Virus record (IMG/VR): IMGVR_UViG_2880389630_000005
Direction: 5' to 3' (one strand)
Origin: a virus
Taxonomy: Duplodnaviria; Heunggongvirae; Uroviricota; Caudoviricetes
Length of the DNA: 64,000 bases
Under the pieces are notes generated by a model. It had not been told where the DNA came from and ran no database searches. It saw nothing but the letters and a program-made list of their open reading frames with translations. The translations under genes and the position numbers were made by a program. Below are positions 30,691-35,336 of this stretch, in pieces. Each line of letters starts with the position of its first letter. Position 1 is the stretch's first letter.

Positions 30691-32799
30691 TTACTCCCGC
30701 TCCATTCCGCTTAGCGATGCCACAATCCCACCCCTCGCTAAGCGCTGAAACTCTTCGTTTCCGACGGTATCACGTATCGCTTTTACAGCAGCTTTATTTG
30801 CCATAAATCTGCGTTCAGCCGCCGCTAATGCACCATCACTTGCCCCAACCTTAACTGCCTTTGTTGCCTCTTGAACAGCCTTTTCAATAGCGTAACGACC
30901 ACTGCGGGATGCAGCTAACTTTTCTATCGTCCCTTTAGCTATAGATCCAGAAACAGCCCCCACAACACCGCCAACAATCCCTCCACCAGTGGTACCAACA
31001 ATAGCCCCTGATGTTGAATTGCCTATTGCATTGAGAACTGTCATGACAGCTTTTGGCAGTCCTTGCTCAAGAGAGTTAATTGCCGGTATAGAGCGCCCAG
31101 TATGCTCTACATATCGCAGTGGTCTGGTTGCTGCTCTGGCAAGGTCGCTGTATGCCCTAGCAATCTTACCCATTTCTGGCGAGTGCTTGCTAATGGCAGT
31201 AATATTCTGCGGCGTAAGGATCGACGCTATATGGAATACGCCAGCAGACTCTGATTTACCGCCACGCACCCCTTGCGATACCGCATCTTGTAATATTGAT
31301 GCAATTGCTGGAGATCGCTCAGACTCTGGCAGTGCGCCAATAATCTGATGAAACTTTCCTGTCCCACTTTTTGATGAATTTTGCAAGGCTTTAATACCAT
31401 CAGTGACTAACTGATCAGTTGCAAGGTTTCTAAACGCTGCTTCAGCCTGTTCTTGTGCTGTAAATCTTGCTTTTGACAGATCATTAGCTTTTTGCCAGTC
31501 ATCAAGAAAACCGCCATTTTGAGCCATTATGCGCATATCTTCCGTTGCTGCATCACGAAGCTCCGCCATGCGCCTTGCCGTATTTGCCTCACCAGACCTT
31601 ATATACTTCTGCTCAGCGTCAGCAAGTTTACTTCGCCATGCCTTCATGGCATCAAACGTGATTCCTTTTTTACCAGTTTTAGCATAAGCAGATGCAAATT
31701 GTTTCATCTCAGGAGTTAGCGGCATACCAGCCAAAATATCACCCTGAATTGTAGCGTTCAGGTTTGACATTCTGGCCTTTGCGTCAGGCATCGTGGAGCG
31801 GACGCTATCCCATGCTGCCTTTTCTGAGTTCTTCATTTTATCAATACTTGCTAAAACCCTTTGTTTTATGGCTGCACTTTTTTCTGATGCAGATCCAGCC
31901 TCAGCACCAAGTTCATCAAGTGCTGAGTGGAATTTCGACTGTATTTCACTAAAAGCCCTAGTATGTGCATCCTGAACAATTCCTGGTTCGGATGCCAATA
32001 TCCCTTCGGCTTGTGCAATTCCACGACTTCCAGATCGCATTCCTGGTGTTAATGCGTTTATATCAATTCCAGCAGACTCAGCCGCTTTTGCTACATCTTC
32101 GGACACATTAGCGGCCTGACTGGCAATTGACTGACGCCCAGCACCTGACTTTGCCATCCTGGAAACATCATTAGCAGAATTCAGTGCTGCACCACCAAGA
32201 GCCTGTGAAACCCTTGGAGCAATAACGCGCCCGACACCTGAAAGAACGCCTTGAGCACCAATATTGATACCACCGTTAATGGCAGCATTTTGTGCAAAGT
32301 CGCCCTCCTGATTTGCAGCATCAGCAAGAGAACCTGCAATCATGTTTCCTGCGGAACCGATATCTTCAGCGAGCTTTGCTGGCGCTCCAGCAGCTTTTGC
32401 CGCTGTGCCAATTGGCAGGAGATACCCACCAATTGTTTCACCGGCTTGCGCGTAAGGGTCTGTCGGTCGATCGACTGGACGATAGACATCATCCAAAACC
32501 TTGGGGCCACCAAGCCCCTGGCTGATTGCATTAATCAGACTTGCGCCACCCTGCAATACGTCAAATGGTATGTTTACCAGACCACGACCAGCCTGTTCTG
32601 CAATTTGCCCTGCACTTTGACCACCAGTGAGCCAGCCAGTGGCTTTTCCTACCAGAGATTGTTCTTCTGGCTGCGATTGGTTTTGAGTGGATTGATCACC
32701 AGAAGACAGCATCTGAGCAATGCGACGTGCTCCCTCAGTATCACCGGCAGCATCAGCATTCCTTAACGCCGTCATCAACTGTTCGCGACTATAGGCCAT
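30691..32799 (-). CDS. ejection/DNA-transfer protein (P22 gp16-like)
   Basis: 702 aa, Ala/Gly-rich; position after gp20-like gene at end of the ejection protein cluster. Confidence 0.6.
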
Positions 32800-33346
32800 T
32801 ACTGCCCTCCGAGATATTTATTAATCAAGTCATCATCAGAAAGCTGCTGTTGAGACGGTTGTATGTCCTTCCCGTATTTCTGTTGCATACGTTTCTGAGC
32901 CATCTCAGTGGTTTTTATGATTGTTTTGATAGCTGCTCTGGCTGATTTTTCAGACTGATTTGGGGACAAACTACCAATAGCATCCATTACCTTTTGCCCC
33001 TCGGCATTACTTAAAGCCCCCATCCCTTTCATCTGCTGAATGCCAGATAAGAATCCCTGAGATTTCAGTGTGTCAACCAGAGTTTCTGTATCAGCAGCCT
33101 CTGTTCCTGGAATGAATCTACTCGATAGTGGGTTTAGGTTTGTTCCGAAATATCCCGTGAATCCTGGGCTATTAAGAACTTTTGTAGCCGTCTCTATCGT
33201 TCTGGAGAGATTATCCATTCCAGAGTTGTACGCATCGGCCTTATCTCGCTTTGCCTGCTCCATAGCTTGCTGATTGAAGTGGTTTACTGAATTTGGCCAC
33301 CTGAACAGAGGTGATATGCTCACCTCAGAACAACACAGGTGCCATA

Positions 33347-33649
33347 ATGAAAAAAAGAAATTTCAGCGCAGAGTTTAAACGCGAATCCGCTCAACTGGTC
33401 GTTGACCAGAATTACACCGTGGCAGATGCAGCCAGCGCTATGGATGTCGGCCTTTCCACAATGACGCGATGGGTGAAACAATTACGTGATGAGCGGCAGG
33501 GAAAAACACCAAAAGCCTCCCCTATTACCCCGGAACAAATTGAAATCCGTGAGCTCAGGAAAAAGCTACAACGTATTGAAATGGAAAATGAAATATTAAA
33601 AAAGGCTACCGCGCTCTTGATGTCAGACTCCCTGAACAGTTCTCGATAA
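33347..33649 (+). CDS. IS911 transposase OrfA
   Basis: 100 aa; [21 protein letters not shown]...HTH and leucine zipper; A6G slippery site near the 3' end. Confidence 0.85.
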
Positions 33650-33675
33650 TCGGGAAACTCAGGGCGCGTTATCCT

Positions 33676-34494
33676 GTGGCCACTCTCTGCCATGTGTTCG
33701 GGGTCCATCGCAGCAGCTACAAATACTGGAAAAACCGTCCTGAAAAGCCAGACGGCAGACGGGCTGTATTACGCAGCCAGGTACTTGAACTGCATGGCAT
33801 CAGCCACGGCTCTGCCGGAGCAAGAAGCATCGCCACAATGGCAACCCAGAGAGGCTACCAGATGGGGCGCTGGCTTGCTGGCAGACTCATGAAAGAGCTG
33901 GGGCTGGTCAGCTGTCAGCAGCCGACTTACCGGTATAAACGTGGTGGTCATGAACATGTTGCTATCCCTAACTACCTTGAACGGCAGTTCGCCGTGACCG
34001 AGCCAAATCAGGTGTGGTGCGGTGATGTGACCTATATCTGGACGGGTAAGCGCTGGGCGTACCTCGCCGTTGTTCTCGACCTGTTCGCAAGAAAACCAGT
34101 GGGCTGGGCCATGTCGTTCTCGCCGGACAGCAGGCTTACCATGAAAGCACTGGAAATGGCATGGGAAACCCGTGGTAAGCCCGTCGGGGTGATGTTCCAC
34201 AGCGATCAAGGCAGTCATTATACGAGCAGGCAGTTCCGGCAGTTACTGTGGAGATACCGGATCAGGCAGAGTATGAGTCGGCGTGGAAACTGCTGGGATA
34301 ACAGCCCAATGGAGCGCTTCTTCAGGAGTCTGAAGAACGAATGGGTGCCGGCGACGGGCTATGTAAGCTTCAGCGATGCAGCTCACGCAATAACGGACTA
34401 TATCGTTGGATATTACAGCGCACTAAGACCGCACGAATATAATGGTGGGTTACCACCAAACGAATCGGAAAATCGATACTGGAAAAAACTCTAA
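33676..34494 (+). CDS. IS911 transposase OrfB (expressed as OrfAB by -1 frameshift)
   Basis: 272-aa ORF in -1 frame relative to orfA; DDE integrase-type catalytic domain. Confidence 0.8.
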
Positions 34495-35336
34495 CTCGGT
34501 GGCCAGTTTTTGTTGACCACTTCAGATTCTGCAATCTCTTGTCCTGCAATTCAGCAAGTTTTAAGGCATTAGTTTCATTTGCGATGAGTCTGTCGTATTT
34601 CTTGTCCTCTAATTCCATCCGACGAAGATTGACATTTTGTTGCGCAATATTGTTGCTTGCCCACCCTCTGGCATTTGTCATGTCATTATTACGGATTGTT
34701 TCGTTAATTCTTTGCTGCTCCTGCTGGCGACCAACCATCTTGTCCTGATAATCCAGCATTTTATCCGGACCAACAGCCCCTAGCGTCATAGTAGTCAGCA
34801 TGTGTGATAGCTGCTCTGGATTCTGGATACCTGTCTGAATCATCCAGTCAGCATTCGCCCCCACGCGATTTAACCTGTCCTTGTTGTCAGTAATGAATTT
34901 ACTGTAGGCTTCCGGTCCCTGAGAAAGAGCGACGTTAGCCCTCATGGCTAAATCGCCCATATCGTTGCGTTGCTGATCATTAAGACCGGAAAACGCCTGT
35001 TGTGCCTGTGCAACAAACGCTGGATTTTCCTGGGCAAACTTAAATAGTCCCGATGGATCACCAGAAGCCCATGCATCAGCGTGAACCTTATTGAACGCAC
35101 TAATAGCTTTCTGTTGCTGTTCCTGCTTATAAATATCAGCAACTCCAGCCAGACCACGTAACGCGGTCAGACCAACGTTATTTGCACCTGATCGAGCCAG
35201 TTCATTGTTTTCGCGGATCAGACCAAGCGTTGCGTTAATGTCGCTTGCCTTTGGCGCATTCTCGTTTTGCGCACCAATGCCAGCCAGAAAACCACCAGAA
35301 TTAATACCCTGTTGCCACGTAGCCATTGATTACCCC

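Follow-up and report, generated by a model that had tools for sequence, protein, structure and literature searches.

Introduction

In phage P22, the product of gene 20 (gp20) is a virion protein that is ejected on infection and needed for DNA delivery (PMC4992974; bioRxiv 10.64898/2026.09.03.749273). It forms a dodecameric channel leading from the outer membrane across the periplasm, in which residues 186-255 make up a helical barrel, PP2, and residues 256-435 a C-terminal plinth; the plinth rests against the cytoplasmic membrane, and contacts with gp16 are predicted for it (bioRxiv 10.64898/2026.09.03.749273). Deletion of gene 20 is lethal and the particles are morphologically normal; amber fragments of gp20 can be packaged (PMC4992974). 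Here, we describe a homologue of this gene that is split by an insertion sequence (IS), an IS911-like element named ISEc52, in a P22/CUS-3-like E. coli prophage carried on the IMG/VR virus record IMGVR_UViG_2880389630_000005. The whole 64,000-nucleotide stretch analysed is referred to as the window. Comparing it with described systems, we infer both the mechanism and the consequence: a recent insertion of ISEc52 at codon 267/268 has very probably crippled the phage.

IS911 is a member of the IS3 family and comes from Shigella dysenteriae. Its hallmarks are 36-bp inverted repeats, an OrfA of 100 amino acids (aa), a -1 frameshift, and a circle intermediate with 3-4 bp of flanking DNA; it is known to transpose by a figure-of-eight/circular copy-out-paste-in route (PMC2909936). 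A copy of IS911 resides in another P22-like phage, Sf6, and IS3-family elements are also found in prophages of E. coli O157, where insertions of IS629/IS1203v in prophages and in stx2 abolish the product while the lysogen persists (10.1101/2023.06.07.543989).

The interrupted gene

The gene, with the IS inside it, occupies positions 32799-35326 of the window on the minus strand, as delimited by the list of open reading frames (ORFs), in-silico excision, and matches to Pfam PF16928 and phrog_2534. It starts with the ATG at 35326, and AAGGGG is located upstream of this start codon. Reading from 35326, there are 267 native codons, then 51 codons of the IS, and a stop at 34370, yielding a fusion ORF of 318 aa at 34370-35326. 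The 5′ segment, recognized by tblastn and in the ORF list at 34525-35326 (minus strand), comprises codons 1-267 and the first base of codon 268. Beyond the IS, the frame continues from 33274 for the last 157 codons; the 3′ segment (32799-33274, minus strand, tblastn) comprises the rest of codon 268 up to codon 424, and the TAA stop at 32799-32801. When the restored protein was used as the tblastn query, its residues 1-267 aligned at 35326-34526 and residues 267-424 at 33275-32802, in both cases with 100% identity.

Deletion of 1253 bp, that is, of the IS and one GAT (33275-34527 or 33272-34524), produces a single ORF of 424 aa. This agrees well with the original prediction, made from the sequence of the window alone, that the two halves would join in frame into a protein of about 420 aa. 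However, the excision range proposed there, 33275-34528 (1254 bp), removes one base too many; it shifts the frame and brings in 8 stops. The restored 424-aa protein is identical to WP_029700929.1, annotated as 'DNA transfer protein', of E. coli R6. In E. coli AREA_R485, which carries the same interrupted gene, the NCBI annotation pipeline (PGAP) places a 154-aa 'hypothetical protein' on the 3′ segment, starting from an internal ATG at 33263, upstream of which no Shine-Dalgarno sequence or other ribosome-binding site is visible in the sequence. The RefSeq annotation already shows a pseudogene beside an ISEc52 transposase.

The restored protein matches the Pfam family Inj_translocase (PF16928, 'DNA/protein translocase of phage P22 injectosome') at residues 12-220, with a score of 351.5 bits against a cutoff of 29.7, and phrog_2534 at residues 1-421 (E=4.6e-176). 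It is 86% identical to P22 gp20 over residues 1-214, with no detectable similarity to it past residue 214, that is, the likeness to P22 is not full-length. The alignment with gp20 of HK620 extends over residues 1-394 with 62% identity, estimated at ~96% in the first 220 residues and ~30% after them. The motif LKS..F..Q.M.GMG.LSNAEGQK, located downstream of the break, is common to the restored protein and HK620 gp20, and the C-terminal half matches gene 20 of HK620, CUS-3, and ST160, and not that of P22. A search of PDB with the restored protein sequence gave no match.

The gene order, 26-14-7-20-16, is that of P22, and the gene has the corresponding late-operon position. The whole prophage is P22-like (Lederbergvirus type) and adjoins dacD. 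By these similarities, the interrupted gene is identified as a gene 20 homologue with the C-terminal half of the HK620/CUS-3 type; the earlier designation 'gp20-like' holds for the part alike to P22 (residues 1-214), but does not describe the C-terminal half. The Inj_translocase domain and the gene order are shared with the homologues in P22, HK620, and CUS-3, while the length differs (424 aa here, 471 in P22, 449 in HK620 and CUS-3), and the gene in the window is split after codon 267.

The insertion sequence

The element is a 1250-bp IS3-family, IS911-like IS at 33275-34524 on the plus strand, one base pair shorter than the 1251 bp initially assigned to it; its limits follow from its ends, homologues, and the PGAP label. 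Its termini are TGAAGTGG...CCACTTCA, at 33275 and 34524, respectively; it starts with TGAAGTGGTTTACTG and finishes with CAGTTTTTGTTGACCACTTCA. The outermost bases, TGAAG...CTTCA, include the terminal TG...CA of the IS3 family and the IS911 type. The left terminal inverted repeat (IRL, 33275-33310, plus strand) was delimited by comparison with the IRL of the Sf6 IS911, and the right one (IRR, 34489-34524, plus strand) is the same as in Sf6 over the 40 terminal bases compared. The repeats are imperfect, with 25 of 36 end positions complementary, and, like the size of ~1.25 kb, this is usual for IS911-type elements. GAT stands directly outside both ends, at 33272-33274 on the left and 34525-34527 on the right, and constitutes a 3-bp direct target duplication of the kind made by IS911-type elements (3 bp, occasionally 4 bp). 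We noticed no IS-end-like sequence at the target site by eye, no formal test having been made.

The coding content is equally complete. The plus-strand orfA (33347-33649, 100 aa in the ORF list) carries the Pfam domain HTH_Tnp_1, found in the N-terminal part of OrfAB with E=1.4e-14. The frameshift heptamer A AAA AAG is located at 33598-33604 (plus strand) in the orfA register, and a -1 shift at it produces an OrfAB of 382 aa with no stops, of which the orfB-frame part covers 33604-34494 (plus strand). OrfAB matches the DDE domain rve at residues 218-316 (E=1.6e-31, 109 bits against a cutoff of 32.6). Thus, the overlapping orfA and orfB fused by a -1 frameshift, the N-terminal helix-turn-helix, and the DDE domain are all those of an IS911-type element, and the orfA/orfB pair, the A6G frameshift site, and the terminal inverted repeats listed in the original prediction are indeed present. 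The transposase is encoded on the strand opposite to that of the phage late genes. With its repeats, OrfA, A-AAA-AAG site, and 382-aa OrfAB with rve, the IS is intact and looks functional; as far as can be judged from its features, it has every hallmark of IS911 functionally.

The name is a different matter. Under the ISfinder rule, two elements share a name at DNA identity of at least 95% or transposase identity of at least 98%. IS911 was represented in the comparison by the Sf6 copy (AF547987): of 1250 aligned positions, 64 differ in the DNA (94.88% identity), and the identity is 98% for OrfA and 96.6% for OrfAB. The values for DNA and OrfAB fall short of the thresholds by a narrow margin, and the Sf6 copy is a stand-in reference. 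RefSeq/PGAP labels the transposase 'IS3-like element ISEc52 family transposase'. Because of this name and the 94.88%/96.6% identity, we place the element just outside IS911 proper, on sequence grounds, and refer to it as IS911-like, ISEc52 in RefSeq; of the earlier identification as IS911, the anatomy stands and the name does not. Closer to the window element than the Sf6 copy, with 99.8% identity, is the IS in the ant gene of Salmonella phage SEN22.

The resemblance to IS911 in Sf6 is nevertheless close. Both copies reside in a P22-like phage genome, have nearly the same length (1250 bp in the window, 1249 bp in Sf6), TG...CA ends, the 100-aa OrfA, the A-AAA-AAG -1 site, and a 3-bp duplication (GAT and GTT, respectively), in addition to the identical IRR. 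They differ at IRL positions 9-11, CAC in Sf6 and TTT in the window, and in the target, as the Sf6 copy lies in the non-essential ninG of a viable phage, whereas the window copy has hit an essential virion gene. The Sf6 insertion in ninG (positions 1501-2749 of the Sf6 locus L004) is not at the position of the ninG insertion of AREA_R485 described below. Elements of this type recur in dispensable genes of P22-like phages (ninG in Sf6, ant in SEN22), and such phages could carry them from host to host.

The empty site and allele distribution

The empty site is found in E. coli R6 (NZ_CP107178.1), which reads ...GCTTGCTGATTCTGCAATC... with a single GAT. IS elements aside, R6 does not differ from the window at 18012-33275 and 34525-50702 (100% identity). 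Together with the sequence of the window itself, the empty site bears out the claim that an IS911-type element with a 3-bp GAT duplication interrupts a gene-20-like gene. More generally, the compared IS-free prophage backbone of ~36 kb is 100% identical to that of the sister genomes apart from the IS.

We found the uninterrupted allele in 24 of 5426 complete E. coli genomes, and the interrupted one only in AREA_R485 (NZ_CP123349.1). The draft assembly GCA_050021315.1 encodes an identical 318-aa fusion product, on a contig whose end lies within the IS. The insertion is real, as several independent assemblies agree on it. Our statements on the whole genome rest on AREA_R485, a nearly identical complete genome used as a proxy; it differs from the window in having a second IS, in ninG, and in the sequence to the left of window position 18012.

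Other IS copies in the prophage

Most sister genomes have no IS in the prophage, and at least 16 have a 100% identical uninterrupted nin region. In AREA_R485, the gene 20 insertion is accompanied by a second 100% identical copy in ninG, inverted and flanked by the duplication AAG (37454-38703 of the AREA_R485 locus L001); the same site is empty in the window, at ~50244-50251. The two copies bracket the entire lysis and morphogenesis module, ~16 kb. In R6, gene 20 is intact, and an identical copy is located in a small ORF between ninG and ninF with the duplication ATT (36652-37901 of the R6 locus L003); this site, too, is empty in the window (~50699-50702). Hence, the copies in AREA_R485 (gene 20, ninG) and R6 (ninG/ninF) are 100% identical to the window copy and have their own 3-bp duplications. 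The sister and SEN22 copies differ from it in having other target sites, and the SEN22, ninG, and nin-region targets are dispensable.

These are three independent simple insertions in the prophage. Inversion by recombination between IS copies is ruled out, since each copy has its own matching duplication. As most sisters have no IS and the three copies arose by independent insertion, the ancestral prophage, reconstructed from the sequences compared, is IS-free, and the gene 20 insertion defines a small clade of the window's strain, AREA_R485, and probably the draft GCA_050021315.1.

A query containing the IS matched ten places in AREA_R485, compared to five to six in sister genomes. This suggests a recent IS expansion in AREA_R485. 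We also considered whether the prophage is a preferred target of ISEc52, or whether IS knock-outs of it are selected. Identical copies occupy three prophage sites (gene 20, ninG, and the ninG/ninF ORF) among ~27 near-identical sister genomes, and two of the approximately five extra copies of AREA_R485 lie inside a 40-kb prophage constituting ~0.75% of the chromosome. In Sf6, too, IS911 has ninG as its target. Still, we regard either explanation as improbable.

Predicted consequence for the phage

We suggest that a single recent transposition placed an active ISEc52 into codon 267/268 of the gene 20 homologue. OrfAB would have generated a circle from an element elsewhere in the chromosome and inserted it into the prophage; homology to IS911 and the identical copies at several sites both point to such a copy-out-paste-in route. 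The interrupted gene would then yield at most the 318-aa product, with 267 native and 51 IS-encoded residues. This product would keep the conserved N-terminal, channel-forming part, including the Pfam domain at 12-220. The lost C-terminal 157 residues would correspond, by position, to the plinth of P22 gp20 that is predicted to contact gp16.

By analogy with P22, the protein encoded in the window would be a virion component that is ejected and needed for DNA delivery, and its truncation probably leads to the loss of infectivity, as expected from P22 genetics (PMC4992974). As P22 needs gene 20 to deliver its DNA but not to assemble particles, induction would produce normal-looking, DNA-filled, but non-infectious particles. 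The lysogen would keep the other functions of the prophage.

The loss of the full-length gene 20 protein, rather than polarity, seems to be the main defect. The downstream gene-16-like gene, whose ATG overlaps the gene 20 stop (TAATG), has its own GGAGG 6 nt upstream, the IS has no excess of terminator-like sites, and the C-terminal fragment has no visible ribosome-binding site. The scan of 32600-35500 for promoters and terminators yielded no promoter-like sites and four terminator-like sites against 2.9 expected, which is evidence neither for nor against polarity on gene 16 or the tailspike gene.

Several points weigh against this interpretation. The IS may have struck an already silent element. 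The C-terminal half of gene 20 is mosaic, and the mapping of the break relative to PP2 and the plinth (PP3) is positional only, because this half has no sequence similarity to that of P22. The whole Pfam domain is retained and amber fragments of P22 gp20 are packageable (PMC4992974), so partial function is possible. Finally, the test for a second gene copy outside the window used the sister genome AREA_R485 as a proxy.

The first of these points leads to the alternative that survives best, namely, that the prophage was defective before the IS arrived and the insertion was a neutral hit in dead DNA. Indeed, the early-left accessory region of AREA_R485 contains PGAP pseudogenes (a DUF2737 gene with an internal stop, a partial Ea22-like gene, and a partial DUF550 gene), and no isolated phage is a close match to the prophage, the closest one being CUS-3 with 66% coverage and 94.6% identity. 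However, in R6, where gene 20 is free of the IS, all genes with essential P22 counterparts are annotated as intact: those for the small and large terminase, portal, scaffold, coat, gp4, gp10, gp26, gp14, gp7, gp20, and gp16, as well as tailspike, holin/endolysin/spanin, Q, replication genes, repressor, and N. The pseudogenes are located in the ea region, and the P22 counterparts of ea-region genes are accessory. Overall, we consider prior inactivation unlikely.

Retained function is a much less probable alternative. The 318-aa product, alone or with a separately translated C-terminal fragment, might still suffice, leaving the phage infective: the entire conserved Inj_translocase domain lies upstream of the break, C-terminal halves are highly variable among P22-like phages, and encapsidation is possible for P22 gp20 amber fragments. 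On the other hand, P22 gene 20 nonsense mutants are lethal by definition, as is the deletion, and the C-terminal domain of P22 gp20 builds the plinth against the cytoplasmic membrane. Moreover, the motif LKS..F..Q.M.GMG.LSNAEGQK after the break is kept in common with the functional HK620 protein despite an estimated identity of only ~30% in this part, which argues for selection, and the C-terminal fragment has no visible ribosome-binding site. Hence, we deem retained infectivity very unlikely. Lastly, although misassembly is frequent at IS elements, a copy misplaced by the assembler is scarcely credible here, given the perfect 3-bp duplication with exact IS ends, the same junctions in the independently assembled complete genome AREA_R485, and the same fusion ORF in the draft GCA_050021315.1.

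Routes of escape

If the insertion indeed cripples the phage, infectivity could be regained by excision of the IS, as the original prediction allowed. This escape is remote. Copy-out-paste-in transposition in the IS3 family regenerates the donor copy (PMC2909936), and precise excision in E. coli K-12 was ~10^5 times less frequent than in O157:H7, which a preprint credits to IEE (10.1101/2023.06.07.543989). As the donor is regenerated and precise excision is rare without IEE, rescue by excision is unlikely, and by analogy with these systems reversion is expected to be very rare. The IS629/IS1203v insertions in O157 are similar to the one described here in that an IS3-family element abolishes a product and the lysogen persists; they differ in that the O157 strains carry IEE and the insertions are revertible.

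A more realistic rescue is recombination with a related phage, or a gene 20 protein supplied in trans. A tblastn search with the restored protein found no second gene 20 copy in the 64-kb window, and blastn, at its sensitivity, located a match to the N-terminal 800 bp at a single place in AREA_R485. Thus, no intact second copy, which would have spoken against the loss of function, was found in either.

Neighbouring genes and adjoining elements

Upstream of the interrupted gene lie, all on the minus strand, the gene-7-like ejection protein gene (35337-36029, 230 aa, Pfam P22_gp7 with 439.9 bits) and, at 36032-37188, a gp14-like (DUF2824) gene and a gp26-like tail needle gene, identified by Pfam and PHROG, which complete the P22 order. 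Downstream, the gene for the gene-16-like ejection protein is located at 30691-32799 on the minus strand (phrog_770, E=1.6e-200). This protein comprises 702 aa, compared to 609 aa in P22, and is 68% identical to P22 gp16 at residues 48-202 only; its N-terminal third has weaker PHROG matches to the 'lytic tail fiber protein' and 'transglycosylase' families. Judging by these matches, such patchwork similarity is the mosaicism typical of ejection proteins.

In R6, the region between dacD and the tailspike gene (window ~24380-24630; 11580-11831 of L003) contains, according to PGAP, an S24 peptidase gene fragment with an internal stop, perhaps left over from an earlier element at the prophage attachment site.

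The left part of the window, 1-18012, is the right part of a Mu-like/myovirus prophage with genes for a protease, tail sheath, tape measure, baseplate, and tail fibre. Strains S13 and R4 have a prophage with 100% identity to it, located beside a truncated TonB-dependent receptor gene near lysP, at ~3.2 Mb. In the window, the Mu-like prophage abuts, at the 18012/18013 junction, the interrupted island gene WP_000086752.1 (by yeeT/cbeA/cbtA), at ~0.87 Mb. The same transposable-type phage is thus found at different places in the chromosomes of sister strains.

Biological significance

An IS knocking out a prophage gene is an ordinary, already known phenomenon, and the locus described here is a clean case of prophage decay. 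Mildly interesting is only that identical IS copies cluster in one prophage across sister genomes; this may, with low probability, be the signal of a hotspot or of selection. If this were true, local hopping or target preference would drive the stepwise grounding of a P22-like prophage. In addition, the inverted pair of copies around the morphogenetic module in AREA_R485 could invert or mobilise this module.

The insertion provides a rare and clean lineage marker, present in one of the 25 complete genomes with the allele, within a group of closely related E. coli from humans and wastewater, among them an O25b:H4-ST131 strain; ISEc52 is currently active in this group. For the phage, it means that a prophage scored near-complete by automated tools is probably unable to spread, as one essential gene for DNA delivery is split. 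Together with its IS-free sisters, the strain forms a natural pair bearing on the need for the C-terminal part of the gene 20 protein in DNA delivery.

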